A stretch of 64,000 nt of DNA. It comes from Mesorhizobium sp. GTDB taxonomy: Bacteria > Pseudomonadota > Alphaproteobacteria > Rhizobiales > Rhizobiaceae. The position numbers were made by a program, and so were the translations under genes. The stretch is from the NCBI RefSeq assembly GCF_004020545.1, contig NZ_SAQE01000006.1; one strand, given 5' to 3'. Each line of letters opens with the position of its first letter. The stretch's first letter is position 1. The notes beneath the pieces are model-generated. The model had not been told where the DNA came from and made no database searches. It saw only the letters and a program-made list of their open reading frames with translations. This document shows positions 2,896-35,247 of this stretch, in pieces.

Positions 2896-4469
2896 GCCGT
2901 CTCCATGGTGTGTTCGGCGTGGCCGGGCTCGGCGCCGCCCATCAACAGGCCGATCTTCTCGAAGGTGGCTTCGGCGATTGGAAGCGGCGCCGACAATTGG
3001 CCGTTGTGCATGACCGCGATGGCGTCCGACAGTTCGAACAATTCGTCGAGGTCCTGGCTGATAACAAGGACCGCCGAGCCGCTGCGGGCAAGCTCGATCA
3101 GCGCCTGGCGGATATGGGCGGCGGCACCCGCGTCGACGCCCCAGGTCGGCTGGTTGACGATGAGCACGCTCGGCTTGCGGTCGAGCTCGCGGCCGACGAT
3201 GAATTTCTGCAGATTGCCACCGGACAACGCTGCCGCTTCCGGATCGGGCGCGCTTTTGCGCACGTCCATCGCCGCGATGATGCGCTGCGCGGCGCTGTAG
3301 ACGGAGGCGTTCTTGACCATGCCGCCGGAGCCGACGAACGACTTGCCGTCGGTGGCATGGCGCGAGAGCAGCAGGTTCTCCGAAAGCTTCATCCGGGGCG
3401 CCGCGCCGTGGCCGAGGCGCTCCTCCGGCACGAAGGCGGCGCCCATCAGCCGCCGGCCGGTGATCGGCAGGCCACCGGCATCCTTGCCGCGGATGCGCAC
3501 CGCGCCTGGATCCTGCTGCAGCACCTCGCCGGAGACGGATTCGAAGAGCTCGCCCTGGCCGTTGCCGGCGACCCCGGCGATGCCGATCACTTCGCCGGCG
3601 CGTACCGTGAGATTGATGTTCTTGAGCGGAATGGCGAAAGGCGTCGCCGGCTTGCGTGTAAGCCCGCGGATTTCAAGCAGCGCCGGCGCGGTTTCGATGC
3701 CTTCGGCAGGCGCGCGCACCACCGCCTTGATCTCGTTGCCGACCATCATACGGGCGAGCGAGGCGGCCGTCTCCTGGCGCGGGTTGCAGTGGCCGACCAC
3801 CTTGCCGTGGCGCAGCACGGTGGCACGGTCGCAGATACGTTTGACCTCTTCCAGCCGGTGCGAAATGTAGAGAATGGATTTGCCTTCCGCGCGCAGCCGC
3901 TCGAGCGTCTCAAACAGTTTGTCGGCTTCCTGCGGCGTCAGCACGGAGGTCGGCTCGTCGAGGATGATGAGTTGCGGCGTCTGCAGCAGGCAGCGGATGA
4001 TCTCGATGCGCTGGCGCTCGCCGACGGAGAGATCGCCGACCAGCGTTTCAGGATCGAGCGGCAGGCCGTAGCTGTAGGAGAGCGCCCTCGCCTTCGCGGC
4101 AATGGCGCTGATCGGCGAGCCGTCGTTGAGTGAGAGCGCTATGTTCTCGGCCGCCGTCAGCGCCTCGAACAGCGAGAAATGCTGGAAGACCATACCGATG
4201 CCGAGCTTTTTCGCCACACCCGGGCTGGTGATCTTGACAGCCTTGCCGTCCCAAAAAATCTCGCCCGAATTCGGCTCGAGCGATCCGAACAGCATCTTGA
4301 CCAGCGTCGACTTGCCGGCGCCGTTCTCGCCGAGCAGGGCATGGATCTCGCCCTTCGCGATGTTGAGGTCGATATGGTCGCACGCCGTCAGCGTGCCGAA
4401 AACCTTCGTAAGGCTGCGAACCTCGAGCAGATTCGCCCTGTCATGATTTGCACTCACAGTGCCTCCCAT
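2892..4469 (-). CDS. ABC transporter ATP-binding protein with duplicated ATPase domains
   Basis: 525-aa ORF with two Walker A loops (GENGAGKST, GVAGNGQGELF) and signature motifs (LSVGERQRIEI, LSGGNLQKF). It is the first gene of the operon. A GTG at 4457, preceded by GGGAGG, is an alternative start. Confidence 0.9.
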   Translation of the reverse strand: MGGTVSANHDRANLLEVRSLTKVFGTLTACDHIDLNIAKGEIHALLGENGAGKSTLVKMLFGSLEPNSGEIFWDGKAVKITSPGVAKKLGIGMVFQHFSLFEALTAAENIALSLNDGSPISAIAAKARALSYSYGLPLDPETLVGDLSVGERQRIEIIRCLLQTPQLIILDEPTSVLTPQEADKLFETLERLRAEGKSILYISHRLEEVKRICDRATVLRHGKVVGHCNPRQETAASLARMMVGNEIKAVVRAPAEGIETAPALLEIRGLTRKPATPFAIPLKNINLTVRAGEVIGIAGVAGNGQGELFESVSGEVLQQDPGAVRIRGKDAGGLPITGRRLMGAAFVPEERLGHGAAPRMKLSENLLLSRHATDGKSFVGSGGMVKNASVYSAAQRIIAAMDVRKSAPDPEAAALSGGNLQKFIVGRELDRKPSVLIVNQPTWGVDAGAAAHIRQALIELARSGSAVLVISQDLDELFELSDAIAVMHNGQLSAPLPIAEATFEKIGLLMGGAEPGHAEHTMETA

Positions 4470-18201: not shown

Positions 18202-19590
18202 TTAGACGCGCTCGCCGTTCTTCACGCGGTAGGTCGGCTTGTACATGGTGACCAGTTCCTCGGCCGCGGTCGGATGCACCGCCATCGTGCGGTCGAAATC
18301 GTCCTTGGTGAGCCCGGCCTTCAGCGGAATGCCGAGAAGCTGCGCCATCTCGCCGGCGTCCGGCCCCAGAATATGGGCGCCGAGCACCTTTCTCGACGCG
18401 CCGTCGACCACCAGCTTCATCAGCATCTTCTCGTCCCGGCCCGACAGCGTATGCCGCATTGGGCGAAAGGACGCGCGATAGATGTCGATGTCCGGGAAGC
18501 GCTTGACCGCCTCATCCTCCGACAGGCCGACAGTGCCGATCTCCGGCTGCGAGAAGACCGCCGTCGGGATGGTGTCATGATCCACCGCCGTCGGGTTGTT
18601 CTTGAAGGCGGTCTCGATGAAGCACATCGCTTCGTGGATCGCGACCGGCGTCAGTTGCACGCGATGGGTGACGTCGCCGATCGCCCAGATATTCTCGATA
18701 TTGGTGCGGGAATATTCATCGACAACGATCGCGCCCGTCTTGCCAAGCTCCACGCCGACACCTTCGAGGCCCATATTCTCCGTGTTGGGGATACGGCCGA
18801 TCGCCAGCATCACCTGGTCGACCGTCAGCGTCTGGCCGCCGGAGAGCAGCACGTCCAGCCTGCCCTGCGGGTTCTTGCGCACCCATTCGGAGACCGAGTG
18901 GCACAGAATCCTGATCCCCTTCTTCTCCATGGTCTCGTGCAATGAGCGGCGAAGGTCCATGTCGAAGCGGCTGAGGATCTCCTGACCGCGATAGACGAGC
19001 GTGGTGTCGACGCCGAGTCCATGGAAAATGTTAGCGAACTCGACGGCGATGTAGCCGCCGCCCTCGATCATGATCGCCTTCGGCAACTGCTTGAGATCGA
19101 ACGCCTCGTTGGAGAAGATGCAATACTCGTGGCCGGAAAGCGCCGGATGCGGCGCCGGCCTGCCGCCGGTGGCGATCAGGATCCGGTCGGCGCTGACGGT
19201 GCGGTCCTCGGCAACCAGATATACCGAATGCGGGTCGACCAGCATGACGCGCGAGTGGAAAGCCTCGCCGCCCGCGCCCACGACATTCTTCTTGTAGATC
19301 GCCTCCAGCCTGGCGATCTCCTTGTCCTTGTTGGCGACCAGCGTCGGCCAGTCGAAGCTTGCCTCGGGCACCGTCCAGCCATAGCCGGCCGCATCAGTGA
19401 AATGCTCGGGAAATTGCGCGGCATAGACATAGAGCTTCTTCGGCACGCAGCCGCGGATGACGCAGGTGCCGCCATAGCGATATTCCTCGGCGATGGCGAC
19501 GCGCTTGCCGAGGGATGCCGCCACGCGTGCCGCCCTCACCCCACCCGAGCCCCCGCCGATGACGAAGAGATCATAGTCGTAGTCGGCCAT
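18202..19590 (-). CDS. gor: Glutathione-disulfide reductase
   Basis: MADYDYDLFVIGGGSGGVRAARVAASLGKRVAIAEEYRYGGTCVIRGCVPKKL (FAD motif plus the redox-active CVIRGC-type disulfide), with a C-terminal HPTAAEE dimerisation motif. AGGAG lies 9 nt upstream of ATG 19590. Confidence 0.9.
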   Translation of the reverse strand: MADYDYDLFVIGGGSGGVRAARVAASLGKRVAIAEEYRYGGTCVIRGCVPKKLYVYAAQFPEHFTDAAGYGWTVPEASFDWPTLVANKDKEIARLEAIYKKNVVGAGGEAFHSRVMLVDPHSVYLVAEDRTVSADRILIATGGRPAPHPALSGHEYCIFSNEAFDLKQLPKAIMIEGGGYIAVEFANIFHGLGVDTTLVYRGQEILSRFDMDLRRSLHETMEKKGIRILCHSVSEWVRKNPQGRLDVLLSGGQTLTVDQVMLAIGRIPNTENMGLEGVGVELGKTGAIVVDEYSRTNIENIWAIGDVTHRVQLTPVAIHEAMCFIETAFKNNPTAVDHDTIPTAVFSQPEIGTVGLSEDEAVKRFPDIDIYRASFRPMRHTLSGRDEKMLMKLVVDGASRKVLGAHILGPDAGEMAQLLGIPLKAGLTKDDFDRTMAVHPTAAEELVTMYKPTYRVKNGERV

Positions 19591-19644
19591 CGCCATGGGC
19601 TCCTGTAACATAAGAAGGACAGGCCAGAGGTAGGCTGCCGAGCG

Positions 19645-22467: not shown

Positions 22468-23994
22468 CTAAGCCAAATCCACTTCGACCCACAGCCCACC
22501 GGGACCACGGGCACGATCGCGCGGCGCACTGCGCACCGCCAGGATCGAGCCTGAGGGCGAAGCGAAAGCTGGCTTTCCATTGGCATTCGCCAGCCAGGCA
22601 TCGTCGGCCCGAATGACGCGGCCCTTGGTCTTCGCTTCGAGCGCGGTCAGGATCGCGCCATAGGGCATCTCGCCCCAATGGATCTTCAACGCATCCAGCT
22701 TGTTGGTGGGAACGAAAGCCGAGAGGTCCGGGCTCGTTATCAGGTCGAGTCCCTGTTTTTCCGGCGTGGCGTTCTGGCTGCCGTGATGCGCGACCTTCAG
22801 ATAGACGGTGCGCGCCAGAAGGTCGGCGGTGGTGACGGTCGCCGCTCCCACCTGGAACTTCAGATCCTTCCAGCTCAGCCAGTTGCCGATCTGGGCGTCG
22901 CCCGGGAACAGGAAGACGCGGCCGGTGTCGATGAATTCGAAGGCGAGCACCAGGCTGGTGTTGTTGACGCCGCGATCGAGCTGCAGCGCGAGGTCGGCGG
23001 CAATTGCCATCCAGTCGGCGTCGATGCGGCGCCAGGACTGGTCGCGATCCTCCATGGGTGCTGCGCCCGAAACCGACCCGGAATAGTGCTTGCTGGTAAA
23101 GGCGCCGATATCGACGGCCGGATCGCTGCCCTTGTCGCCGTTCAGCGCCGCGGAGAGCGGCGTGCCGATGTTGCGTTCGAAGGGACTGAGTTCGTCGATA
23201 TAGGTCGCATCGTCGGCCTGATTCATCTTCAGCCCGGATGCGAGCGCCCGTGCAAACGGCCCGCCGCTGGCGAGCGGAAACATCTCGCTCGCCTTTTCCT
23301 CCAGTCGGAGAGCTGCCTTGTCGCGCGGCGGACCGAGCACATAAATCCGAAGATTGGGCAGTTCCGCGATGGATTGCGGCGCCCCGCCGGGCTCGAAATA
23401 GGTGGGCGATGGTTTTGCGGACAACTTTGCCGCGGCATTGCGCGCCGAACGCACCCGTTCCCCGGCCGCGCCGAACTGGAAGCCGAGCACGGCCTGCAGG
23501 CCGTCGCGGACGCTCGCCATGTAAGGGTTGAGCCCCTGCATGCCGTCAAGCTTCTGGCCCGCGCCCTGCAGCGCGGCGAGCGCCTGGCCCTTGAACTTGT
23601 CGAGCTCCACGGCTTCGGCATCGGCGGGGTTTTCGGTCCAAGCCATCCAGACATCGCCGACTGCAAAATCCTTGAACAGGTCCTTCGCGGTCAGGAATCC
23701 CGAGACGTGGTCCCAGTGCTCATGCGTGACGACGAGCACATCGATCCTGCCGCCCGTCTCCTTTTTAAGGTCGGCGACGATGTCGGCAACGAGCGCCGGA
23801 CCGCCTGTGATCGATACGTGGATGCCGCAATCGATCAGCATGCGGAACAGCGAGCCATCCGGCTTCGTGAAGGTGAGCAGGTGGCAGTCGCCGATGCCTT
23901 GGCAATAGTGCCGGACGGTGACGGCCGACGCGTGCGTCGTCGCGGAAGCCGTGGTGTCAACGGGCCTTCTCTTTGCCGCGGGCCTTCTAGACAT
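22468..23994 (-). CDS. MBL-fold metallo-hydrolase, ComEC/Rec2-like subtype with a large internal insertion
   Basis: 508 aa from ATG 23994 (MSRRPAAKRRPVDTT...). It has the HxHxDH motif VVTHEHWDHVSGF, a late FPGDAQ and VAHHGSQN. The start lies inside the last codons of the upstream protease gene (CATGTCTAG, 8-nt overlap). Confidence 0.8.
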   Translation of the reverse strand: MSRRPAAKRRPVDTTASATTHASAVTVRHYCQGIGDCHLLTFTKPDGSLFRMLIDCGIHVSITGGPALVADIVADLKKETGGRIDVLVVTHEHWDHVSGFLTAKDLFKDFAVGDVWMAWTENPADAEAVELDKFKGQALAALQGAGQKLDGMQGLNPYMASVRDGLQAVLGFQFGAAGERVRSARNAAAKLSAKPSPTYFEPGGAPQSIAELPNLRIYVLGPPRDKAALRLEEKASEMFPLASGGPFARALASGLKMNQADDATYIDELSPFERNIGTPLSAALNGDKGSDPAVDIGAFTSKHYSGSVSGAAPMEDRDQSWRRIDADWMAIAADLALQLDRGVNNTSLVLAFEFIDTGRVFLFPGDAQIGNWLSWKDLKFQVGAATVTTADLLARTVYLKVAHHGSQNATPEKQGLDLITSPDLSAFVPTNKLDALKIHWGEMPYGAILTALEAKTKGRVIRADDAWLANANGKPAFASPSGSILAVRSAPRDRARGPGGLWVEVDLA

Positions 23995-26900
23995 GGTCGT
24001 CGTCTCCGTCGCTGGCATGCAGCAGGGCGAAGGGTTCCGACACCTCGCCGCCGAAATAGAGCGCTCTGAGCGGCGACAGATAGTTTGCCGCCATCGTCCC
24101 GGCCTGCCGCTTCTGCCGGTCCGCGCTGCCGGTGTTCTTGATGATCGAGTAGCGGATCTCCTCAAAGCCTTCGCGCGGGTCGATGATGATGGTCGCGCCG
24201 CCGCGGAACCAGAAGAAGCCGTCGCCCTTGTTCACGCCCTGCGGCGCAGCCGTGCCGTCGAAGGCGACGGGTATCCGCTGCTGGATAACGGCGACCACCT
24301 CGACGCGGAACGAACCGTCCGGCTCGACCCGCCGCGTTGGCCGCACGCTGTAGATGTCGAAAGTCGTCTCGCCCTTCTTCGGCGCGTGCATGACCGTGCC
24401 GTCCTCGTTGTAGCGCGGCAGGTCGGGCAGCAGGCCGAACTGCTTGTAGAGGTCCGGGTTGGACGCGAAGGCCTTGTGCATCGCCTTCCACAGCGCGTAG
24501 CGGTTCTTGTCATTGAGGGCGAAGATCTCGGCACGCTTCAGCTTCTGGTTCCAGCCGAGGTCGATCTTGCTCAGCAACCCGTTCAGCCAGGGTGGGGAAG
24601 GGTCTTCCGGCGCGCTCCAGGCGAGCGTCTCTTCCGAAATGGTGCGCACGTCGCGCGGCAAAAGCTTCCACTTGCGGAAGGATTCCAGGAACGCCAGGCG
24701 ATAATGGAGCGGATCGTCCGGATAGGCATCGCGGTCCGCAGTGATCAGCGCGCGCAGATACTCGCCGAAGGTGATGTCGACGGCCGGGCAATAATCGAGC
24801 GCGCGGATGCACATGGTGAGCATCTGCCCGGCGGTCTTGGCAACCTCGTCGGTAAGGCGCTCGACGAGGCTCGGATGCAAGGTGCCGGCCGGCAGGATAC
24901 CGGTACCGCCGGTGGCAAGCTGGATCAGATCGTCGGTGCGGCGGTCGGCGATGGCGATGAACGCCTGATAGACCGCGAAGACGAGGATCGAGCCGCGGTC
25001 ATGCGCCTCGAAGGTCTTGTCGTAGTCGAGGTCGGCCATGCCCGAGCCGCCATATTCGCGCAGTGGTCCGGCCCGGCCGCTGCCTTCACCGAACTGCTTG
25101 GCGATGCCGGAAAGCAGCGACGCCACCGACACATCGCCCCTCGCCTTGCCGATCTCGAAATTCACCAGCTCCTTCAGGGTAAAATGCTGGAACAGCGCAA
25201 CGATGTCGGCAAACGCCTCATGGAAGGCCGGAACGTCCGGATTGGACGCTTCATGGAAGCGGCGATGCAGCCCGTCGAGCAGCGCATGCGACATCTCATG
25301 CGCGATGATGTCGCTGGACAGGCAGGAAAACACCGTGGTCCCGGGTGTGGTGACGTCGCCCTCATTGCTGGTTGCCGGGAAATAGCCGAACAGCAGCGCC
25401 TTCTTTTCCGGGCTGTAGTAGGCGTTCTCGGCGCGCAGCGCGTGTGGATAGATGCGCAGGCGCGGCACATAATGGGCCTTCACCGTCATGTCGCCGCTGC
25501 GGCCGGGGGCTTGCGAATAGTGCGGCGCCCACAGCGCCCGCCGCCCAAGAGCGCGTTCGAAATGGCCGATCGTTGTCATGGCGACCGCGTAGACCATCTG
25601 CTGGTGAAACTTCGGATTGCCTTCCGAAGGCGACAGGCCGTCCTGGGCCAGGAGCACCTTGTCGTTGAGGTCGACAGGATCGTAGACGCGGTCGGAGGCC
25701 GGATCGACATCGACCACCTCGAGATATTCGCCGATCGGGCCTCCCAACAGTGGCTTGTCGGCCGATGGCTCGTCGTCCCAGGGAACCGAGAGCGTCGCCT
25801 GGTGGACCGACACCGAGTCCAATCGCTTGGCGACCGAAGGGTCGAGCGCGTAGATGCGCAGGCGCCGCTGCGGCGGCGGCAGCGGACGCGGCCGGCGCTT
25901 GATCGGCGCCGGGCCTGCAGCGGTAACGGCGACCGGCAGCGGCTTGGCGCCAGCCCTGCCCAGCAACCCTTCGAGAAAGGCCTTGAGCGGCTTCGACGGA
26001 TTGCCTTCGTCGAGAGCGGCCTCGAAATAGCGATTGCGCGCGGCGGCCGAGATCGCGGCCGGATCGCCATCCGGGTCGGCGATCGCCTGGTCGACGGAAG
26101 CGGTGGTTTGCGCCATCTGCATAAGCTCAAGCGCAAACATCCTTTGCCTTTGGACGGCGGCCGGTGGCTGTGCCGCCAGAGAATTGCCGCCGGTGAGCAG
26201 ATCCAGCCAGCTCCATGTGTAGGTGGCCAGCGGCAGTTTCCGGAGCTGGTTCTCAGCCGGTGGGGAGATCGCCAGCGCATCGAAGGCGCGAACTACCCCC
26301 TGCCCGATCTTCTCCAGCGTCTCGGCGGTGTTCATCTTCGGCGTGGATTTCTGCGCCACCTTGAACAGCGCGAAGCGGACGGCCTCGATGCGCATCCATG
26401 GCTGCGGATAAGTCTTCACGCGATCCCAGTGCTCGGCCAGCCAAAGCGCCGCGGCTGCCGCGATCTGCGGCGTCGCCGCCGACGTGCCGTTGCCATCCAT
26501 GTCGACGACCTTGGCGCAGTCGATCTCCGCCCAGGGCACGTTCGGCGTGTAGGCGCCGAGCGCCGACTTCATCTTCGATGGCGGCCCATAGTTGCCCTGC
26601 ATGGTGCCGAAGGCGAGCCCGGCATAGGCGCGGCCGTCGCCCATCACGCCGCATGCCGCCAGCACACGGTTGTAGCGCGCCGGATAAACGATGCTGCGCG
26701 GCGTGATGGCAAAGTTGTTGCCGGCCGCAGTGACCATGACCAGGCCGTGGTCGTAAGCGAGATTGACGGCATCGACCAGCGCTTGCGAGGCGAGGCCGCC
26801 CATGCTCATCGACAGCACCTGGGCGCCTTGCTGGCGCGCATACTCGATGCCTTGCACCATCGTGCCCGTCGTCAGCCGCACCACCCAGTCGGCGATGCGC

Positions 26901-27658
26901 ACCGGAAGGATCTTGGCCCGCGGGGCGCCGCCGACGAAGTCTGTGAAGCCCGGCCAATTTGGCGAGGTGCCGTCGAGCTTGTTGCCGGCAAGCAGGCTGA
27001 GCGTGCCGGTGCCGTGACCGCGATTGCTGGTGAGCGTGCCGGCAGGCGCATGATCGGTCGCGTTGTCCGGTCCGGTGCCGTCATCGACGAAATTGCGCTG
27101 CTTTGCCGCCAGAAGCCCGGCCGGCAATGTGCGATGTCCCGGATCGAAGCCGGTATCGAGATGAGCGATGGTGATGTTGGCCTGCTTGGCGCCGACCCTG
27201 GTGCGGGCGGCCACGAATTGGCTGAAATTCGGCCCGGCGTTCCAAGCGATACCGTCCCGGACGACCGCTTGTCCGCCGCTAGGATCCTGATCGTCGAAGG
27301 TGCAGGCAGGGCTGGCGCTCGCCGCCATGCCGCGATCGCCGTTGCCGTTCTTGTACTCCCATCGCTGTTCGATATCGGGCTCGACTGCCAGGACATCTGC
27401 GCCCGCCGCCGCGAAATCTCCGCCGCGGGCTGCAAGCTTGTGGGCATCGTCCCAGGGATTGTCCGAGCCTGCCGCCTTGGCGGAAACCCGCAGCCAGGTC
27501 GCGCCACGGTCCCCCGCTGCCCCGTAGTCAGCGCCGGACGCACCCGGCGGCAGGGTCAGGATCGGTTCGGCATCGACGCTCTCTATCCCAAGCGACCGGC
27601 CTCGCGCTGCAAGCCCGGTGCCATCACCGCGAACCTTGATCAGGAGTCCCCTCGCCAT
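23987..27658 (-). CDS. Fusion protein: subtilisin-like S8 serine protease + thermolysin-like (HExxH...ExxxD) zinc metalloprotease + unassigned C-terminal region
   Basis: 1223 aa from ATG 27658 (SD GGGGAGGGG). S8 motifs: AHLDTGF (Asp), NRGHGTGTLS (His), TAAGNN (oxyanion Asn), GNGTSAATPQIAAAAAL (Ser). A linker PIKRRPRPLPPPQRR follows, then IIAHEMSHALLDG and AFHEAFADIVALF. There is no hydrophobic N-terminal signal peptide. The 1300-aa opposite-strand ORF is an Arg/Ala-rich shadow. Confidence 0.85.
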   Translation of the reverse strand: MARGLLIKVRGDGTGLAARGRSLGIESVDAEPILTLPPGASGADYGAAGDRGATWLRVSAKAAGSDNPWDDAHKLAARGGDFAAAGADVLAVEPDIEQRWEYKNGNGDRGMAASASPACTFDDQDPSGGQAVVRDGIAWNAGPNFSQFVAARTRVGAKQANITIAHLDTGFDPGHRTLPAGLLAAKQRNFVDDGTGPDNATDHAPAGTLTSNRGHGTGTLSLLAGNKLDGTSPNWPGFTDFVGGAPRAKILPVRIADWVVRLTTGTMVQGIEYARQQGAQVLSMSMGGLASQALVDAVNLAYDHGLVMVTAAGNNFAITPRSIVYPARYNRVLAACGVMGDGRAYAGLAFGTMQGNYGPPSKMKSALGAYTPNVPWAEIDCAKVVDMDGNGTSAATPQIAAAAALWLAEHWDRVKTYPQPWMRIEAVRFALFKVAQKSTPKMNTAETLEKIGQGVVRAFDALAISPPAENQLRKLPLATYTWSWLDLLTGGNSLAAQPPAAVQRQRMFALELMQMAQTTASVDQAIADPDGDPAAISAAARNRYFEAALDEGNPSKPLKAFLEGLLGRAGAKPLPVAVTAAGPAPIKRRPRPLPPPQRRLRIYALDPSVAKRLDSVSVHQATLSVPWDDEPSADKPLLGGPIGEYLEVVDVDPASDRVYDPVDLNDKVLLAQDGLSPSEGNPKFHQQMVYAVAMTTIGHFERALGRRALWAPHYSQAPGRSGDMTVKAHYVPRLRIYPHALRAENAYYSPEKKALLFGYFPATSNEGDVTTPGTTVFSCLSSDIIAHEMSHALLDGLHRRFHEASNPDVPAFHEAFADIVALFQHFTLKELVNFEIGKARGDVSVASLLSGIAKQFGEGSGRAGPLREYGGSGMADLDYDKTFEAHDRGSILVFAVYQAFIAIADRRTDDLIQLATGGTGILPAGTLHPSLVERLTDEVAKTAGQMLTMCIRALDYCPAVDITFGEYLRALITADRDAYPDDPLHYRLAFLESFRKWKLLPRDVRTISEETLAWSAPEDPSPPWLNGLLSKIDLGWNQKLKRAEIFALNDKNRYALWKAMHKAFASNPDLYKQFGLLPDLPRYNEDGTVMHAPKKGETTFDIYSVRPTRRVEPDGSFRVEVVAVIQQRIPVAFDGTAAPQGVNKGDGFFWFRGGATIIIDPREGFEEIRYSIIKNTGSADRQKRQAGTMAANYLSPLRALYFGGEVSEPFALLHASDGDDDHV

Positions 27659-27846
27659 GGCGCACCCCTCCCCGGAAATGGAATCATGGCGTCGGCCGTC
27701 GTCTCCAGTCAAGCCAAGTTTCAAGCCATGATTCGATCGGTCTATTTGCCACCAGGAAATCAAGCCGATTGTGTTTCGGCACGATATGCTTGGCGTCCGA
27801 AACATACATTCGGAAAATGACGATCGCGCCGAGTGACAGAGGCTTC

Positions 27847-27862
27847 TGTGATCGCCTTCACA
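27847..27862. promoter_or_regulatory. Perfect CRP-type box TGTGA-N6-TCACA in the divergent protease / crp-like intergenic region
   Basis: TGTGATCGCCTTCACA read directly from the sequence. Its centre is ~197 nt upstream of the protease ATG (27658) and ~340-395 nt upstream of the regulator start candidates. Confidence 0.65.
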
Positions 27863-28248: not shown

Positions 28249-28935
28249 ATGGCCACAGCCGGCATAGACGACAGGAGCGCCGTGCCGCGCCTGGCGCGGA
28301 TCGACCCGCGCCAGTTCGAGCTGCTGTTCGGCGGCTGCAAGGTCGAACGCTACGCCGCCGGTCAGCACCTGTTCGTTCAGGAGGATGCGTCCGACCGCAT
28401 CTATGGCGTGATGAGCGGCACCGTCGAAATCTCGCTCTATTCGCCGGGCGGACAGAAGCTGGTGGCCAATATCGAGCTCTCGCGCAGCCTTGTCGGCGAG
28501 ATCGGCGCCCTGGACGGACGCCCGCGCACGGCCACCGCCATCTGTCACACCGCTTGCGAGCTGGTTTCACTCAGCCGAACACAACTCTTTGATCGCATTG
28601 AAAAAAATCCGTCGCTGGCGCGTGCCATGATCGAACTGCTATGCGCGCGGCTGCGCTGGGTCAGCGGCGAACTAGGCGACCAGGCTTTCTTCGGCATCGA
28701 GGCCCGACTGGCGAAGCGGCTGGTGTTCCTCAGCGGTGTCATGGCAGACCCTGCCGGCTGGGTTCCGATCTCGCAGTCGGAGCTTGGCGAGTTCCTCGGC
28801 GCGACGCGCGAATCGGTCAACAAGACGCTCAACGACTGGCGCAACCGGCACATGATCGCCATCAAGCGCGGAGGGCTGCGCATCACCAACGCCGCCGCGC
28901 TGAACCAGATCGCCGAATCGCAGGACGACGACTGA
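28249..28935 (+). CDS. Crp/Fnr-family cNMP-binding transcriptional regulator
   Basis: cNMP-binding fold (YAAGQHLFVQEDASDRIYGVMSGTVEISLYSPGGQKLV...GEIGALDGRPRTATAI) plus a C-terminal HTH ISQSELGEFLGATRESVNKTLNDW with a CRP-like R-E pair. In-frame alternative starts exist at 28174 and 28192 (GGAG before 28192). Confidence 0.85.
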   Translation: MATAGIDDRSAVPRLARIDPRQFELLFGGCKVERYAAGQHLFVQEDASDRIYGVMSGTVEISLYSPGGQKLVANIELSRSLVGEIGALDGRPRTATAICHTACELVSLSRTQLFDRIEKNPSLARAMIELLCARLRWVSGELGDQAFFGIEARLAKRLVFLSGVMADPAGWVPISQSELGEFLGATRESVNKTLNDWRNRHMIAIKRGGLRITNAAALNQIAESQDDD

Positions 28936-28953: not shown

Positions 28954-31900
28954 TCAGAGCCGCGAAATCAGGTATCGCAGCGCGGACCGGCTCGGCATGA
29001 AGAAGTAGCCGCCGCCCTTCGTGGTGACGAATTGCGGCACGTCCTTGAGCATGGTGACCTTTTCCCATGATGGGATCGAGAACCGGCCGCCACCGTCACG
29101 CGCACCGATCGTCGGATCCTTTTCCGCGACCAGGCCCTGGAACGAGCTCGAGGAAACCCAGGTCTGCTGGATGAACTCGTACTGACGCTCGATGTCGGCG
29201 TTGAGGCACATGAAGAGCAGCCCCTTCTCGACCTTCCCGCTCCGGTCCTGCTTTTCATAGGTGCGGCCGACGCGCAGGATGCGGTGGCGCTTGCCGATCC
29301 TGATCTGCGTCTCGCGGTCCTCGCCAAGCGAATCGCGCGGATTGGAGCGGCGTATGTGCGAGCCGAGCGGGCAGCGATGCCCTTGCGGGTCTTCCACACC
29401 AAGCGCGAAATCATTGTCGGTGCCGCGGCCCGGGCGGCCGTCGGGGTTGCGCACCAGCGAACTGCCGTCCTGCCAGCGCCCCAGCATCTTGGCCGCCACC
29501 CAGCGCGGCGTGACGGCATCGTCGCCAGTCTCGCGCGCAGCCAGCGCGGCGGCATGCTTGCAGTAGTCGTTGAACAACTCGACATGCTGCTCGAACTGGC
29601 GCACGACGAGGAAGGAACCGTTGCGGCCGAAGTCGCGTGGCGGCGGAGGCTGACCGGGAATCTGCCGGTTCCGCCGCACCTGCGACAGGATGCCTATCCG
29701 ATCCTGCGCCGCCTGGACGGAGGGCGAGGCCGGATAAAACCCGTGCTCGTCGCGATAGCCGAACAGGAATTCGCCGGGCGCGACCAGATGCATCGGTGCG
29801 GCCCCCTTGTTGGCGCGCGACGTGCCCCTGACGATCGGTTGCGAGACACCGTCGGCGAAGCCGAAATGCTCATAGGCGCGCTGGCGCTCGGGCTTGCCGT
29901 TGTTGCCGATATGCTGGGATTTCACGCCCTCCTTCTTGGGCTCGCGGTTCACGACAAGCGGCAACTCGGCGACGATCTTCATCCCGGCGCCTGCCGTCTT
30001 TCGCTTCGCGGCGGTGACCTCGGCCTTGAGCGCGGCCGGCTCCTTGGCGTAGCAGATGACAACCGCGTCGACCGGCGTCTTGGCCGAGCCCCATTGCCAT
30101 TTGTCGGGCGCGTCCGGCCCTTGGTCGTCGAGGATGCGGCTGCGCTCAGGATTTCCCATGCCGTGACGAAAAGCGACCGGAAACGTGTCCAACGGATCAT
30201 CGTCGACGCCGCCCTCCAGCCCGAGCCGACGAAGGCCGTCGGGGCCGAAGGCGACTGTCATGGCCCGTCCGGCGGGCACGCCGTCGCCGAAGCTGGTTTT
30301 ATCGATGACGAAGTCCAGCCATGCCTTGCGTTGCATTGCCGGCAGATCCTCGGGCACCCGGATTGCCAGCATATGCCCGTAACCGAGCGCGCCGAAAGGA
30401 CCGAAGAAGATCGATTGGATCTCGCCGGCTTCCAGTTCTTCGAGAGGCGAAGGGGCCGGCTCGCGGCCGACGGTTTCCGCCGGCCTCGCCTGCGGCCGCT
30501 GCAACGAGCCGAACAGGCTCACCCAGTCGCGCGCCTCGTTGCCGATGGCCGAAGCCATGCCGCGCCTTATCCTGGAGTTGATGCGGATGCGGGTGGTGTT
30601 GAGATGCGGATAGGCGGAATACCAGAAGAGCGTCGGCACCTGCTGGCGCCGCGCCCAGCGCTTGAAGCGGTCGCCGTCGCGCGCGCCGTCGAGGAAGAGC
30701 CAGCGCGTGCGCGGATAACCTTCCGTGTTGCTCCACACCCCGGTCAGGCCTTCGGAGGCCTTGGCTATGAAGTCCTCCAGATAGCTTTCCCAGCTACCGC
30801 CGTAGTTGGAGAAGAACATGAGCTTGCCGGTACCCGGCAGCAGCACCCAACGCGCGAAGTGGATGGTGTTGATGGTGGCAAGGAAGCCCGGCTTGAACAC
30901 CTTCTGCGCCGATATCGAGATCAGGTAGAAGGTGAGCCTCAGCGCCAGCCGCCGCAAGGTGCCCGCCTTCATCGTCGAGATCGCGGTGAGATGGTTCTGC
31001 GCGCAGTGGTCCTCATTGGCGAGGATCTTGTCCAGGGCGCCTATGTCGACCGGCGTGCTCTGCGGCCGGTCCTTGTCCTCGAGGCGCCGCAGGCCGAGGA
31101 AGCACAAGCCGACGAACAGCAGGGCTATCGCCAGCAGCCCCAGAAGGGCCAGCAGAAGTGCGGTGCCGGCAATCGCGATGTTGGTGAAGGTGATGCCGTG
31201 GGGGTTTCCGAACACAAGCAAATAGGTCATGCGCCAGCAGGCAAGTACGACGATCGCGACGGTGACGAGCACTGCCGGCGCGAGCAACGTCGTGGTCAAG
31301 GCCCGCCACCAGCGGCCCGGCGGCCGCTCCAGCAGGCTTTCGGCCGGCTCGAAGGCCCAGCCGAATTGTCCCAGCGCCTGGGCATGGCGACGTGCCTCGG
31401 TAAGGACCGCAAGGGCGTTGCCGGTACCGGCGCGCGGCTTTTCGACGATCTCGCGCACACTGTCGGCAAGCCTGGCCTCGGCCAGGATGCGGCGCACCGA
31501 ATGGCCGGGCGTGCCCGAAAAAACCAGCCCCGCCGTGCTGCCGAAGGACGGCGATATTTCGATATGATGTTTCTTCAGGAAATCCTCCAGCGAGCCGCCG
31601 TCGGACAGGCCGCAAACATCCCTGAAAATCGGCCTCAGCCGGTGGCCTATGGCCTGCGTGATGGCGCCGATGACATCGTTGGTGCTGCCGTCGCCGGAGA
31701 TTTCGAACACGAGCGCCCCCGTGTCGAGGCCCGATCTCTCGTCCTTCCCGGTGGCGGCGACGGCCAGGCTGGTGAAATGTATCGATCCGACCTTGTCGAG
31801 CGCACCGCCCACCTCGTCGATCGCCGGATTGCCGAGGGCGCCGACCTTGTCGCGGACGGCGTCCAACGGCACGGCGCAGGTGATCGGGCAAACCACGGTG

Positions 31901-33234
31901 ACCATTGATTGGTCGACCGTGCGGCAAAGCGGTGAGCGCTCGAAATCGACCTTGAGGTTCGCTGGATAAGCGCCGACATAGGCCAATTTGCCGGCCCTGC
32001 CCCGGACGCGATTGAGCTTTGGCTTGCTGAACAGGGCGCGAACGCATTCGCCGATCTGTATCCGGGCGATCTCCGCACCGATGCACAAGTGAATGCCGTG
32101 GCCGAAAACCATGTAATCGCGGTGTGGCCGCGAGGTATCGAATTCTTTTGGCCGTTGCACGATTTCCGGATCGAACATCGCCGACAGCGTTGCCGGCATC
32201 ACGACCGTTCCCGCCTTGACCAGATGCTCGCGGCGCGTGCCCTGGCCGATGATCGCGTCACGCCTGGTGTAACGCCAGGGCCCGATCCAGATCGGCTTGA
32301 AGCGCATGGCTTCGAGTATCGCCCTGTCGAGCTTGTCGATGCTGTCCTCGGCAAGCGCCGCATCGACGGCCTGCCGCGCATCGGTGCGCGACAGGATCAC
32401 GTCCAGGCAATTGCCCCCGGCAAGCACGTTGGTCGGCACGAAGCCGGCGATCATGCCGAGCATGATGGAGTGGATATCGGGCAGCGACAGACGCTTCTGA
32501 TCGAGCTGGGCGACAAGCCGCGCCAGCGGCCGGTCGTCTTTCTCCTGCCTGTTTCTGATCGCGGCGATCGAACGATCGATGACCTTGATCAGGCGATCTC
32601 CGCCGACGACCGCGAGTTGGCGCGTGGTGGCGTCGGCAAACGGATCGGAGAAGAACAGCGCGCTGAGCGCGATCGACCAGTCGGCGAATTCGGTCTCGTC
32701 GTCGATCTCGAGGCCGAAATAGTCCCGGCAGATGCGCACCGGGACGATCTTCATCAGCCCGGCGACAGCATCGAAGCCCGGGGCGGCGCGGGTCATGATA
32801 TCGCGCGAATGGCGCTCGGCGATCGGCCTGACGGTGGTTTCGACCTGCGACGGCGGAAAGGCGCTGAGCACGGCGGACTTCATCTGCCGATACGCGGCGC
32901 CGTCCTGCATGCCGAGAATGAAGTTCGATCCCCTCGCCAGCTCGGTCATTTCCGGCCCGTATGGCGTCTCGAACTCGTCGCCGCGTTCCAATATGTCGCG
33001 GACGTCCACACCCTTGGTAACGAGGAGAAATCTGCTACCTATGGCGAGGTTCGGGTGGCAGCGCCGCAGCCAGGCCAGCCACCAATGAGGATGATCCTGC
33101 ACCAGGAACCTGGCTATGCGCGCCGACAGGCCCTTCTTGCGCAGCCGATCGATGTCGAAAGGCGGCATTGCCGACACGGGGCCTTGTTTTTTCTGGGCTT
33201 CCCAAATGCCTTTGAAATACTTCCAGTTGATCAT
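28954..33234 (-). CDS. Fusion hemoprotein: cytochrome P450 + two-TM hairpin + conserved unassigned domain + DyP-type peroxidase
   Basis: Uninterrupted 1426-aa ORF. P450: ExxR (LEAMRF) and Cys loop FGHGIHLCIGAEIA. TM helices: WWRALTTTLLAPAVLVTVAIVVLACW and IAIAGTALLLALLGLLAIALLFVGLCFLGL. Mid motif: TIHFARWVLLPG...FFSNYGGSWESYLEDFI. DyP: EHFGFADGVSQP, GSHIRRSNPRD, RILRVGRTY, LLFMCLNADIERQYEFIQQTW. Confidence 0.88.
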   Translation of the reverse strand: MINWKYFKGIWEAQKKQGPVSAMPPFDIDRLRKKGLSARIARFLVQDHPHWWLAWLRRCHPNLAIGSRFLLVTKGVDVRDILERGDEFETPYGPEMTELARGSNFILGMQDGAAYRQMKSAVLSAFPPSQVETTVRPIAERHSRDIMTRAAPGFDAVAGLMKIVPVRICRDYFGLEIDDETEFADWSIALSALFFSDPFADATTRQLAVVGGDRLIKVIDRSIAAIRNRQEKDDRPLARLVAQLDQKRLSLPDIHSIMLGMIAGFVPTNVLAGGNCLDVILSRTDARQAVDAALAEDSIDKLDRAILEAMRFKPIWIGPWRYTRRDAIIGQGTRREHLVKAGTVVMPATLSAMFDPEIVQRPKEFDTSRPHRDYMVFGHGIHLCIGAEIARIQIGECVRALFSKPKLNRVRGRAGKLAYVGAYPANLKVDFERSPLCRTVDQSMVTVVCPITCAVPLDAVRDKVGALGNPAIDEVGGALDKVGSIHFTSLAVAATGKDERSGLDTGALVFEISGDGSTNDVIGAITQAIGHRLRPIFRDVCGLSDGGSLEDFLKKHHIEISPSFGSTAGLVFSGTPGHSVRRILAEARLADSVREIVEKPRAGTGNALAVLTEARRHAQALGQFGWAFEPAESLLERPPGRWWRALTTTLLAPAVLVTVAIVVLACWRMTYLLVFGNPHGITFTNIAIAGTALLLALLGLLAIALLFVGLCFLGLRRLEDKDRPQSTPVDIGALDKILANEDHCAQNHLTAISTMKAGTLRRLALRLTFYLISISAQKVFKPGFLATINTIHFARWVLLPGTGKLMFFSNYGGSWESYLEDFIAKASEGLTGVWSNTEGYPRTRWLFLDGARDGDRFKRWARRQQVPTLFWYSAYPHLNTTRIRINSRIRRGMASAIGNEARDWVSLFGSLQRPQARPAETVGREPAPSPLEELEAGEIQSIFFGPFGALGYGHMLAIRVPEDLPAMQRKAWLDFVIDKTSFGDGVPAGRAMTVAFGPDGLRRLGLEGGVDDDPLDTFPVAFRHGMGNPERSRILDDQGPDAPDKWQWGSAKTPVDAVVICYAKEPAALKAEVTAAKRKTAGAGMKIVAELPLVVNREPKKEGVKSQHIGNNGKPERQRAYEHFGFADGVSQPIVRGTSRANKGAAPMHLVAPGEFLFGYRDEHGFYPASPSVQAAQDRIGILSQVRRNRQIPGQPPPPRDFGRNGSFLVVRQFEQHVELFNDYCKHAAALAARETGDDAVTPRWVAAKMLGRWQDGSSLVRNPDGRPGRGTDNDFALGVEDPQGHRCPLGSHIRRSNPRDSLGEDRETQIRIGKRHRILRVGRTYEKQDRSGKVEKGLLFMCLNADIERQYEFIQQTWVSSSSFQGLVAEKDPTIGARDGGGRFSIPSWEKVTMLKDVPQFVTTKGGGYFFMPSRSALRYLISRL

Positions 33235-33313: not shown

Positions 33314-33329
33314 TGTGAATTCCGTCACA
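33314..33329. promoter_or_regulatory. Perfect CRP-type box TGTGA-N6-TCACA upstream of the P450-DyP gene
   Basis: TGTGAATTCCGTCACA read directly, in the 119-nt gap between the cyclase stop (33354) and the P450-DyP ATG (33234). Its centre is ~88 nt upstream of the ATG. Confidence 0.7.
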
Positions 33330-33353: not shown

Positions 33354-35135
33354 TCATGCAATGGACTTGGCTTGGTCGAAATTGGCGATCAGGAAGTTGT
33401 TTTTTGCCGCGTCTACGAACGGTATCCAGCGAATTCTCTGCTCGGAAAAGTCGGGATGTCTGGTCGCGAAAATGGCAAGTTCCCGCTTGGCCTCGTCGCG
33501 GCGGCCGCTTCGCATCAAGGCGCCGATCTTGAGAAACCTGGCGTAGAAATAGCCCGGCGAAAGGTTGAGCGAGCGATCGGCAATTGCAATTGCCGCGGGC
33601 CAGTCCTCGACGAAGCAGTATGCGGCGGCCAGTTCCCCAAGATTGTGGAAGCGGTAGAGGTCGAACGGGCTGAGCCGCTCAGTATCCAGGAAGAACGGGA
33701 TCGCGCCTGCGGCATCGCCGAGCAGCAGGCGCGCGCTGCCCATTGCCGAGCGGGCGAAAGCAAAGCTCGGATTGATGTGGATCGCTTCGGCCAGATGCTC
33801 GGCGGCCGACGCCGGCTGGCCGCGCATGATGTCGGCCGCGCCAAGATAAGCGTGCGGGCGCGCGTCGAGGCTGTCCATCAGAAGCGCTTTGCGCGCCAGC
33901 GCCTCGACCTTGTCCAGGTCGTCGCTGTCGCCGAAGCGCAGCCAGGCCCGCCAAAAATACCACCATGCCAGTTCGTTCAGCACGGCGCTGGAATTCGGAT
34001 CCTCCTGGTAGGCCTTGTCGAAGAATTCGAGTGCGATTTCCGTGTCGCTTCGCGTGCGCCTGTTCATGTGCCAGCGGCCGCGCCGCACCAATTGCCAGGT
34101 CTCGAGACTCTCCCATGGCACCTGGAAGGTCCGCACCTGCTCGGCCCGGTCGACTTCCTTGTCGAGGATCGAGACGATCTCGGAGCCGATCTGGTCGCGC
34201 AGGCTGAAGATATCGACGAGGTCGCGGTCGAAGCGCTGTGACCAGACGAGGCGCCCGTTCGACGTATCGGTGAGCGAGGCATTGAGGCGTATCTGCCCGT
34301 TGTGGCGCGCCAGCGTGCCGCTGACGATGTAGCGCGCGCCGAGCGCATTGCCGATGAGCCTGGTCCCGAGGCTGTCGTCGCGGAACTGGAAGCTTGAGCC
34401 CTTGGCGATCACCGAAAGCCAACGGGTATTGGAGAGGCCATAAATGATATCCTCGGCGATACCATCGGCCATGTATTCGACATCGGGCTCGCTTCCGTCG
34501 CCCTGGAACGGCAGCACCGCGATTGCCGGCGGTCCCTTGGCAGCGGGTTTGTAGTGACCGGGCGCTGTGGGGATGGCGGCCAAGGGAGCCGCCATCGCGG
34601 CACCGTTGCCATCGCGCCCGGCTATCAGGACGCGCACCGGCAACGCGATGTTCTTCAGCATGAACTCGCCGAGATCGGTGAAATTCGCTGCCGTCTTGTC
34701 CTTGACGTGATGCCAGGTCGTCTCGGAAATGGCGAGGCCGTCATGCGGGGCGAACTCCTGGAGCCGGGCGGCAATGTTGACGTCGTCGCCATAGAGGCGG
34801 CCTTCGCGGACGATGACGTCGCCTGTGTTGATCCCGGCCCGGAACGGCATGCGCATCTCTTCGGCGACCGAGGCATTGAGTGCCATGATCCGATCCTGGA
34901 AATCGAAGGCCGCGCGCAAGGCTTCGATCGGATTGCCGAATTCGGCCATGATGCTGTCGCCGGCGACGCCAAAGGTGCGGCCGCCAAAGGCGCCGCAGCT
35001 GTCGGTGATGATATCGCGCCTTTCCTCGAAGGCCGCGACGGCAAGTTCGTCATCGATTCCCATCAGCCGTGAAAAGCCCACGGCGTCGATAGAAATGATG
35101 GTCGCGAGCTGACGGGTATAGTTCCGTTCAGCCAT
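33354..35135 (-). CDS. Class III adenylate/guanylate cyclase with C-terminal TPR region
   Basis: 593 aa from ATG 35135: MAERNYTRQLATIISIDAVGFSRLMGIDDE...FGVAGDSIMAEFG...GINTGDVIV...YGDDVNIAARL (CYCc motifs), followed by a long helical-repeat/TPR-like C-terminal half. Confidence 0.85.
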   Translation of the reverse strand: MAERNYTRQLATIISIDAVGFSRLMGIDDELAVAAFEERRDIITDSCGAFGGRTFGVAGDSIMAEFGNPIEALRAAFDFQDRIMALNASVAEEMRMPFRAGINTGDVIVREGRLYGDDVNIAARLQEFAPHDGLAISETTWHHVKDKTAANFTDLGEFMLKNIALPVRVLIAGRDGNGAAMAAPLAAIPTAPGHYKPAAKGPPAIAVLPFQGDGSEPDVEYMADGIAEDIIYGLSNTRWLSVIAKGSSFQFRDDSLGTRLIGNALGARYIVSGTLARHNGQIRLNASLTDTSNGRLVWSQRFDRDLVDIFSLRDQIGSEIVSILDKEVDRAEQVRTFQVPWESLETWQLVRRGRWHMNRRTRSDTEIALEFFDKAYQEDPNSSAVLNELAWWYFWRAWLRFGDSDDLDKVEALARKALLMDSLDARPHAYLGAADIMRGQPASAAEHLAEAIHINPSFAFARSAMGSARLLLGDAAGAIPFFLDTERLSPFDLYRFHNLGELAAAYCFVEDWPAAIAIADRSLNLSPGYFYARFLKIGALMRSGRRDEAKRELAIFATRHPDFSEQRIRWIPFVDAAKNNFLIANFDQAKSIA

Positions 35136-35247
35136 GGTTGAGCCCCCGGTCCCTGCTTTCGGTCCAGAACAGGCGACTTCCGCTGGAAAAAGCACTTCGC
35201 CGTTTGCCGACAAAACAATCCCCGGCAGGCTCGGCGCGCCGTTGCCA

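Follow-up and report, generated by a model that had tools for sequence, protein, structure and literature searches.

Why would a bacterium place a cytochrome P450 and a DyP-type peroxidase on a single membrane-anchored polypeptide? The question is raised by a minus-strand gene of Mesorhizobium sp. (NCBI RefSeq assembly GCF_004020545.1, contig NZ_SAQE01000006.1), which lies in an analysed stretch of 64,000 nucleotides (nt), referred to throughout as the window, and encodes a fusion protein of 1426 amino acids (aa). We propose, with moderate confidence, that this protein is a member of DyP subclass V4, anchored in the inner membrane with two cytoplasm-facing heme domains, and that it is induced through a cyclic nucleotide (cNMP) and a CRP-family regulator for peroxide-linked oxidation.

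An intact fusion gene of a catalogued subclass

The fusion gene and its parts, with the residues, scores and homolog counts that define them, are as follows (ORF, open reading frame; TM, transmembrane; AF2, AlphaFold2; pLDDT, predicted local distance difference test):

28954..33234, minus: complete fusion ORF, 1426 aa, in the order P450, split alpha+beta domain with TM hairpin, DyP; ATG start; full-length homologs at 50-98% identity
31930..33117, minus: cytochrome P450 domain, class-I-like, aa ~40-435; Pfam p450 37.1 bits; PDB matches 5vws and EryK; E308, R311 and C384 in 118/118 homologs
32428..32451, minus: I-helix motif IAGFVPTN, aa 262-269; Val-Pro in place of the acid-alcohol pair; G264, F265, P267 and T268 invariant
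32065..32106, minus: Cys-ligand loop FGHGIHLCIGAEIA, aa 377-390; canonical FxxGxxxCxG spacing
31435..31914, minus: predicted N-terminal ferredoxin-like repeat of the middle domain, aa 441-600, with His486; AF2 pLDDT 94; hhalign to the C-terminal repeat 96.3%; conservation
31078..31305, minus: predicted two-helix TM hairpin, aa 644-719; the only KD19>1.6 segments; two segments in 111/118 homologs
30490..31032, minus: predicted C-terminal ferredoxin-like repeat of the middle domain, aa 735-915, with TIHFARW and FFSNYGGSWESYLEDF; conservation, AF2, hhalign
28957..30357, minus: class-V DyP-type peroxidase domain, aa ~960-1426, with Asp1128, His1293 and Arg1321; Foldseek TM-score 0.82-0.83 to 8re2/8re3; alignments; invariance

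According to the ORF list and its translation, the frame at 28954..33234 runs from an ATG through 1426 aa without a break, as a preliminary description of this DNA had stated. A protein cluster search returned more than 120 clusters of homologs that span 100% of the fusion at 50-98% identity, with hosts in Mesorhizobium, Pseudaminobacter, Chelativorans, Nitratireductor, Aquamicrobium and Methylobacterium; several come from complete genomes, and the nearest, from a Mesorhizobium isolate, is 98% identical. Because so many clusters have full coverage, complete genomes included, the fusion ORF is neither a chance frame nor an assembly artefact, and the same full-length homologs speak against a stop or frameshift hidden between the domains. 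Residue invariance was judged on an alignment of 118 full-length homologs, among which the catalytic residues of the P450 and DyP domains show no variation; these residues are also kept in representatives at <=50% identity. With Pfam p450 and Dyp_perox_C both scoring above their cut-offs, the profiles, alignments and invariant residues bear out the earlier view of one polypeptide with two intact heme domains. The motifs quoted in that description are likewise all present: IAGFVPTN (aa 262-269), LEAMRF (307-312), FGHGIHLCIGAEIA (377-390), TIHFARWVLLPG (790-801), FFSNYGGSWESYLEDFI (807-823), FGFADGVSQP (1124-1133), GSHIRRSNPRD (1291-1301), HRILRVGRTY (1317-1326) and LLFMCLNADIERQYEFIQQTW (1339-1359).

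The G+C content is 60-66% in the window and 65% in the fusion gene. Long ORFs of up to 874 aa lie antisense to the fusion (for example, 29284..31908 on the plus strand), and one of 1300 aa lies antisense to a neighbouring S8 protease gene; we regard them as compositional shadows and not genes, because the underlying coding sequence is rich in G+C.

The succession of P450, TM region and DyP is already known. A phylogenetic survey of 2022 (PMC9719856; Biochem Biophys Rep 2022;33:101401) describes it as DyP 'subclass V4', lists this subclass as unexplored and of unclear sidedness, and puts forward two roles for it, H2O2 scavenging first and a Ppo-like two-step synthesis second. The fusion has an N-terminal P450, TM region(s) and a C-terminal DyP on one polypeptide, as subclass V4 is defined; it shares the domain order, the conserved distal Asp/Arg and proximal His and the proteobacterial host with the published subclass, and the best PDB relatives of its DyP all belong to class V (C/D), consistent with this placement. 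The preliminary description had treated the fusion as novel and likened it to fungal Ppo enzymes (psi-factor-producing oxygenases). Both the architecture and the analogy were in print by then (PMC9719856), and what stands of the novelty claim is that our literature search returned no characterized member. Natural P450-DyP fusions are an enzyme class that has been catalogued but never studied, across hundreds of bacterial species. We found no mention in PMC9719856 of the domain between P450 and DyP, of relatives lacking the P450 or of genomic context; the predicted fold of this middle domain, the predicted same-side topology and a putative cyclase/CRP switch appear to be new here.

Two conserved heme domains

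By sequence, the P450 domain looks like a classical class-I enzyme. It scores 37.1 bits against Pfam p450 (cut-off 22.8), and in a PDB sequence search its aa ~50-410 matched dozens of class-I bacterial P450s, with 84 matches at E<=1e-10 and E values down to 8e-21. The K-helix E308-x-x-R311 and the Cys384 loop FGHGIHLCIG are each found in 118 of the 118 homologs. The best relatives (E about 1e-18 to 1e-21) are EryK/CYP113A1 and other class-I enzymes (PDB 2jjn, 7ayx, 5vws), at only ~25-30% identity; they are stand-alone, soluble, ferredoxin-served monooxygenases, whereas the P450 described here is fused and membrane-anchored.

The acid-alcohol pair of the P450 I-helix, (A/G)Gx(D/E)T(T/S), serves O2 activation and is typical without being obligatory. 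It is absent from the fusion, which reads A-G-F-V-P-T, with Val at the acid position and Pro at the Thr position, and G-F-x-P-T (G264, F265, P267, T268) is kept across the family, including distant representatives. The preliminary description took this replacement as a pointer to peroxide- or hydroperoxide-using P450s, an argument that we find weak. In EryK, the HMMER-aligned counterpart of IAGFVPTN is IAGYLPAS, which has the same unusual A-G-aromatic-x-P in place of the pair, and EryK is an ordinary hydroxylase dependent on O2 and ferredoxin. CYP152 enzymes bind the fatty-acid carboxylate through an I-helix Arg-Pro pair, and CYP74 enzymes carry an insertion in the Cys loop. No Arg-Pro pair occurs in the 118-homolog alignment, where the residue before Pro267 is Val, Ala or Gly, and the canonical spacing of the loop leaves no CYP74-type insertion; neither CYP152 nor CYP74 is named among the 60 best PDB matches listed of the 84 at E<=1e-10, the named ones being class-I. 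Because EryK shares the motif, the Cys loop is canonical and the relatives are class-I, the I-helix by itself is no sign of peroxide chemistry.

Cys motifs of ferredoxin, Rieske or 2Fe-2S type were looked for in every ORF of the window, with two matches, both in implausible Arg/Pro-rich off-frame ORFs. The sole flavoprotein-disulfide reductase near the fusion (18202..19611) has a dimerisation domain and a GGTCVIRGCVPKK motif, which we take to be typical of glutathione-reductase-type enzymes, and no redox-partner gene was found in the conserved neighbourhood of the fusion loci compared. As far as the Cys-motif scan of window ORFs reaches, the earlier statement that the window encodes no ferredoxin or reductase partner holds.

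The C-terminal DyP carries the full Asp/Arg/His catalytic set, and peroxidase function is predicted. Pfam Dyp_perox_C gives 23.8 bits (cut-off 20), and NCBIfam Dyp_perox_fam matches aa 1044-1418 (E=3e-26) with 92.3 bits, under its curated cut-off of 100.5. In a PDB sequence search, aa ~1190-1422 matched class-V DyPs, the best being the D. radiodurans DyP 8re3 (E=2e-38). An AF2 model of aa 441-1426 (pLDDT 91.9; predicted TM-score, pTM, 0.89) has the two ferredoxin-like alpha+beta domains of the DyP fold, and its DyP part matches 8re2/8re3 in Foldseek with a TM-score of 0.82-0.83 (target-normalised; E about 1e-27), as well as AnaPX, DyP2 and fungal DyPs. The GXXDG motif, FGFADG with Asp1128, aligns with the motifs of 8re3 and of an ancestral D-type DyP and is present in 118 of 118 homologs; the proximal His1293 (GSHIRRSNPRD) and distal Arg1321 (RILR) align with those of DyPs and are invariant in the same set. 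Profiles, the 8re3 match, the modelled fold and the catalytic residues agree with the earlier assignment of a full DyP peroxidase to the C terminus. The D. radiodurans enzyme (8re2/8re3; PMC10820274) shares the DyP-domain fold and the aligned Asp/Arg/His at 26% identity over the Foldseek alignment. It and other class C/D (V) DyPs, such as AnaPX (5c2i), DyP2 (4g2c) and the fungal enzymes, are soluble single-domain proteins of about 440-490 aa; here, unlike in those soluble DyPs, the domain forms the C-terminal third of a membrane-anchored multidomain protein.

A duplicated middle domain split by a membrane hairpin

The stretch aa ~440-960 is without a match in Pfam or NCBIfam. An AF2 model of aa 441-925 alone (pLDDT 94, pTM 0.90) contains two beta-alpha-beta-beta-alpha-beta units, arranged as a first unit (aa ~441-600), connecting helices, two long helices and a second unit (aa ~735-915). 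The two repeats are homologs by hhalign (probability 96.3%, E=1.8e-9), and the almost invariant His486 and His792 occupy counterpart positions in the IHF strand motif of each. As modelled, the middle domain is an internally duplicated ferredoxin-like alpha+beta domain whose halves flank a TM hairpin. The C-terminal repeat is the most conserved segment of the family; the preliminary description had recognised a conserved stretch that it could not assign, and AF2 and hhalign now place that stretch in this repeat.

A Foldseek search of the middle-domain model against the PDB gave nothing at E<=1e-3. The best match was the Abx(+)O polyketide decarboxylase (9ltx, 206 residues), a tandem/dimeric alpha+beta barrel of ABM-like type (E=0.012, target-normalised TM-score 0.52, probability 0.99, 6% identity); both repeats are covered by the alignment, which has 427 columns. 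The middle domain is ~2x the size of Abx(+)O and is split by the membrane hairpin; there is no sign of homology at the sequence level, no common catalytic residues were identified, and neither Pfam ABM nor Dabb matches. It is most aptly regarded as a new family of tandem ferredoxin-like alpha+beta architecture, because it has no Pfam, NCBIfam or PDB assignment and its repeats are homologous. A degenerate DyP, considered for its 'strand - loop - LxFxxxxD strand - helix' likeness, was rejected: hhalign gave <1% for a repeat against a DyP half, and no DyP is among the 50 best Foldseek matches listed.

Strongly hydrophobic 19-residue segments (KD19>1.6) occur at only two places in the whole protein, aa 644-677 and 680-719, which are the two long mid-protein helices that the preliminary description had picked out. 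They coincide with the hairpin helices 213-235 and 243-281 of the middle-domain model, and two such segments are kept in 111 of 118 homologs. The hairpin is flanked by 3 and 4 Lys/Arg and its short loop is uncharged; no N-terminal signal peptide or further hydrophobic segment was detected in the fusion. Because the middle repeats, modelled as one unit (pTM 0.90), flank the hairpin, and given the Lys/Arg flanks and the lack of a signal peptide, the model implies that both heme domains must face the cytoplasm. From the same modelling, we infer that the two repeats pack as one alpha+beta unit rigidly joined to the DyP. That both heme domains lie on one side of the membrane had been proposed before; the hairpin charges and the split domain now support it, by prediction, and the argument addresses the sidedness that PMC9719856 left open.

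The near-invariant pairing of His486 and His792, the invariant Trp, Asn, Arg, Glu and Asp around them, and a degree of conservation above that of either heme enzyme prompt a further reading, to which we assign a low probability: the middle domain might be a cofactor-binding redox module that makes the fusion a self-sufficient electron wire. If so, repeats binding an extra heme or other cofactor would form a multi-centre wire linking the hemes of DyP and P450 to a lipid substrate or to the quinone pool, which would explain both why no ferredoxin or reductase is encoded and why the middle domain always travels with DyP.

The family and its constant core

A HMMER scan with the middle domain found 2056 representative clusters (50% identity level) at E<=1e-3, of which 844 were at E<=1e-30, and at least 537 species-representative genomes encode a relative. 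The wider taxonomy was drawn partly from a plasmid search, which adds Pararhizobium, Rhizobium, Sinorhizobium, Sulfitobacter, Novosphingobium and Skermanella as hosts. For a census of architectures, 134 newly found top representatives were sorted by local HMMs: about 75 have the middle domain and DyP without a P450 (roughly 900-1100 aa), and about 45 have P450, middle domain and DyP (roughly 1380-1640 aa), with the DyP catalytic residues kept in both groups alike. One representative (P0335, 1970 aa) has a tandem P450 pair, and in several the hairpin gives way to 4, 6 or about 10 hydrophobic segments; the members with ~10 such segments between the middle repeats are among P0281, P0283, P0286, P0303 and P0362.

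From this census, the constant unit of the family is the split middle domain with DyP, to which about a third of representatives add a P450; comparative genomics shows the middle domain and DyP as the probable ancestral core. The constant partner of DyP is an extremely conserved duplicated domain and not the P450. The preliminary picture of a partner-independent two-heme machine loses force on this point, since ~60% of the representatives with middle domain and DyP lack the P450 and an obligate pairing is weakened.

Most candidate split versions of the fusion are artefacts. The gene at locus L006 is a frameshifted full-length gene (3295-3317); the breaks in the TM region at L008 (2900-3030) and L009 (7880-8000) fall where a nanopore-derived assembly has in-frame stops and garbled sequence; and the 'stand-alone' middle protein at L004 runs on into DyP in another frame (~9559). 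The boundary between the P450 and the rest, at the distant loci L008 and L009 only, looks like a genuine gene boundary, with a start codon at the domain edge and an ATGA overlap (L009) or an 8-nt gap (L008). Family members recorded in databases as split call for caution, because metagenome and nanopore errors mimic two to three separate genes.

A cyclase and CRP cassette

The fusion gene is enclosed by three elements of a putative regulatory switch (TPR, tetratricopeptide repeat):

33354..35213, minus: class-III nucleotide cyclase with a sensor region ending in TPR repeats, 619-aa ORF (homologs 587-607 aa); Pfam Guanylate_cyc and TPR; 74/76 loci
28249..28935, plus: convergent CRP-family cNMP-binding transcription factor, about 228 aa; Pfam cNMP_binding and HTH_Crp_2; the ORF reaches upstream to 28003
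33314..33329, no strand: perfect CRP-type palindrome TGTGAATTCCGTCACA, starting 96 nt upstream of the fusion ATG

Neighbourhoods were compared across the best 80 loci, one species-representative genome each and all close to Phyllobacteriaceae (about 50 Mesorhizobium and about 30 related taxa, with 44-94% identity in the middle domain). The cyclase gene lies directly upstream of the fusion in 74 of 76 evaluable loci and a crp-like gene downstream in 75 of 77; the cassette also occurs in Methylobacterium, in Nitratireductor and on a Pararhizobium plasmid, with different outer neighbours. Perfect TGTGA-N6-TCACA sites number two in the window, against 0.03 expected. All 77 loci with upstream sequence have a CRP box (<=1 mismatch, <=300 nt upstream), perfect in 58, and it starts 66-99 nt before the fusion ATG in all but two. 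Because the half-sites are kept while the six-base spacer varies, the box is a phylogenetic footprint. The regulator falls in the true CRP cluster, with GlxR, S. meliloti Clr, M. tuberculosis Crp and E. coli CAP as its closest PDB relatives, so that a CRP-family regulator with cNMP-binding and helix-turn-helix (HTH) domains, a class-III cyclase and an upstream operator, the features of a CRP/cNMP operon, are all present.

The sensor part of the cyclase protein (aa ~229-600) has homologs encoded just upstream of the fusion in Novosphingobium and Sulfitobacter (E=2e-36 and 5e-36). The first, on pNL2 of Novosphingobium aromaticivorans, bears the annotation SARP-family regulator, the second lies on a plasmid of Sulfitobacter, and neither has a cyclase domain; the sensor module is found beside the enzyme in three orders of Alphaproteobacteria, with differing output domains. 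We infer that a dedicated signal-responsive switch, acting through a cyclic nucleotide and CRP, controls the fusion in this lineage. Such a switch would provide a handle for inducing the gene, by cyclase overexpression or added cNMP, and a route to its natural signal and substrate in genetically tractable rhizobia. Of the solved structures, that of S. meliloti Clr (PDB 7pza) is one of the nearest to the regulator; S. meliloti cyclases are of the CHASE2 or membrane type (PMC10127613, PMC5498481) as opposed to the TPR-sensor cyclase here, and the Clr target gene differs from the P450-DyP gene.

Judged by eye, the two substrate-specifying positions of the cyclase domain (aa ~37-187) seem to carry neither Lys/Asp, canonical for adenylate cyclases, nor Glu/Cys, canonical for guanylate cyclases, which makes the product of the enzyme uncertain. 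A terminator scan at the convergent gene ends found nothing convincing.

The second perfect CRP box of the window, TGTGATCGCCTTCACA (27847-27862), lies 42 nt upstream of a 1272-aa ORF (23987-27805, minus) that has an S8 subtilase domain followed by an HExxH motif (HEMSH). In 22 of 22 related loci with this neighbour, a perfect box is found about 45-60 nt upstream of it, and the local CRP-like regulator probably controls the giant S8 protease too. Directly downstream of the S8 gene, and overlapping its end, is a 565-aa ORF for an MBL-fold protein (22468-24165, minus) that matches the PADLOC LmuA-like MBL model (E=2e-12). The two genes may be an unrelated protease/hydrolase pair or a defence-like module.

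Proposed function and alternatives

In the mechanism that we favour, the TPR module would sense a signal, the cyclase would then make a cyclic nucleotide, and the CRP-like factor would bind the TGTGA-N6-TCACA box and induce the fusion enzyme. The core of DyP and middle domain would use a peroxide to oxidise a lipophilic or membrane-associated substrate, to which the P450 would add an oxygenation or rearrangement step, before or after, on the same substrate; the middle unit would hold the DyP at the cytoplasmic membrane surface and force P450 and DyP to the same side. Several points weigh against this proposal. The chemistry is guesswork, as are the substrate, the oxidant and which of the two reactions comes first, and H2O2 is normally very low in the cytoplasm, so that the model leaves the peroxide source unexplained. 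The regulatory link to the fusion is drawn from conservation, and a scan for a sigma-70-type promoter beside the CRP box found nothing convincing. The packing of the middle-domain halves, and of the middle domain against DyP, is read from AF2 confidence values only. Our literature search found no functional study of any family member, PMC9719856 being the only relevant paper.

One alternative, which we consider unlikely, is a partner-independent hydroperoxide pipeline akin to fungal Ppo or coral AOS-LOX enzymes, the model of the preliminary description and also the second suggestion of PMC9719856. A fatty-acid or lipid hydroperoxide, produced or taken up in the membrane by one of the heme domains, would be rearranged by the P450 to an oxylipin-like signal with no need of O2 or NAD(P)H. 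The strictly kept G-F-x-P-T in place of the acid-alcohol pair would suit this scheme, as would the lack of a ferredoxin or reductase gene in the cassette across >80 genomes, the membrane anchor that puts both hemes at the lipid surface, and a tight signal-dependent regulation befitting the synthesis of a signalling molecule. The I-helix motif is, however, shared by EryK, a normal monooxygenase; the close PDB relatives are all class-I, the Cys loop is canonical unlike that of CYP74, and the CYP152 Arg-Pro pair is lacking. Moreover, most family members have no P450, and we know of no DyP that dioxygenates fatty acids. The likeness to Ppo, drawn in the preliminary description, holds for the logic of two different heme domains on one chain taking consecutive lipid steps without external reductant, and for no more than that. 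Ppo enzymes have an N-terminal domain of the peroxidase-cyclooxygenase superfamily and a C-terminal P450, whereas the present fusion starts with its P450 and ends with a peroxidase of the DyP (CDE) superfamily; Ppo enzymes have no membrane hairpin or alpha+beta middle domain, and homology is limited to the P450 fold.

Another doubtful possibility is a classical detoxification or catabolic two-enzyme module, in which an ordinary P450 monooxygenase served by housekeeping ferredoxin and reductase hydroxylates or demethylates a hydrophobic aromatic compound, possibly plant- or lignin-derived, and the DyP oxidises the resulting phenol with H2O2 perhaps from P450 uncoupling. This agrees with the class-I-like P450 and its canonical heme-binding loop, and many bacterial P450s have no adjacent partner genes. 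The hosts, soil, rhizosphere and marine Alphaproteobacteria that include the aromatic degrader Novosphingobium aromaticivorans, and a dedicated ligand-type sensor fitting substrate induction, point the same way. Yet no catabolic genes are conserved beside the cassette, whose flanks vary between genera, this reading does not account for the hairpin or for the high conservation of the middle domain, and there is no evidence for a cytoplasmic H2O2 supply.

Less probable still is a peroxide scavenger, the first suggestion of PMC9719856, in which both hemes consume H2O2 or organic hydroperoxides at the cytoplasmic face of the membrane as inducible protection from oxidative stress. The intact DyP catalytic set and a membrane location suited to removing lipid hydroperoxides are in keeping with it. 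Both types of heme domain can react with peroxide. A 1426-aa three-domain protein with its own cyclase/CRP switch nevertheless seems too elaborate for the task, no OxyR- or OhrR-type regulator is associated with it, redox-defence genes such as the glutathione-reductase-like gene are already nearby in the window, and the extreme conservation of the non-heme middle domain suggests handling of a specific substrate.

A conflict or defence effector, with a sensor-cyclase signal turning on a damaging peroxidase fusion and, in Mesorhizobium, the giant S8 protease, is very improbable: the perfect CRP box before the 1272-aa S8 gene in 22 of 22 loci with that neighbour, the LmuA-like match of the MBL-fold neighbour, and the nucleases, phosphoesterases and peptidases around P450-less relatives (Rhizobium and Sinorhizobium plasmids, L004) speak for it, but PADLOC has no match for the fusion, cyclase or S8 protein and, among these and the regulator, finds only the generic cNMP-binding domain of the regulator (PycTIR-type effector models), the cassette is syntenic in ~50 Mesorhizobium and ~30 related taxa with an identity series consistent with vertical descent, unlike typical defence islands, and transcription-factor signalling is slow for abortive infection.

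Further genes at related loci

Genes for the middle domain and DyP without P450 were found on Rhizobium and Sinorhizobium plasmids and a metagenome contig (L092, 7206-10202; L094, 8067-9755; L004, 8001-10890). Genes for nucleases, phosphatases and peptidases recur beside them, among them a DNA/RNA non-specific endonuclease, a protein of the endonuclease/exonuclease/phosphatase family and trypsin-like or S8 peptidases, a setting that differs from the cyclase/CRP cassette. In Pararhizobium (L093, 11086-15349) and at a metagenome locus (L006, 6864-13683), the CRP-like gene is followed by genes for several large hypothetical proteins of about 600-870 aa, those at L006 having no Pfam family on record; they could be additional targets of the local regulator.

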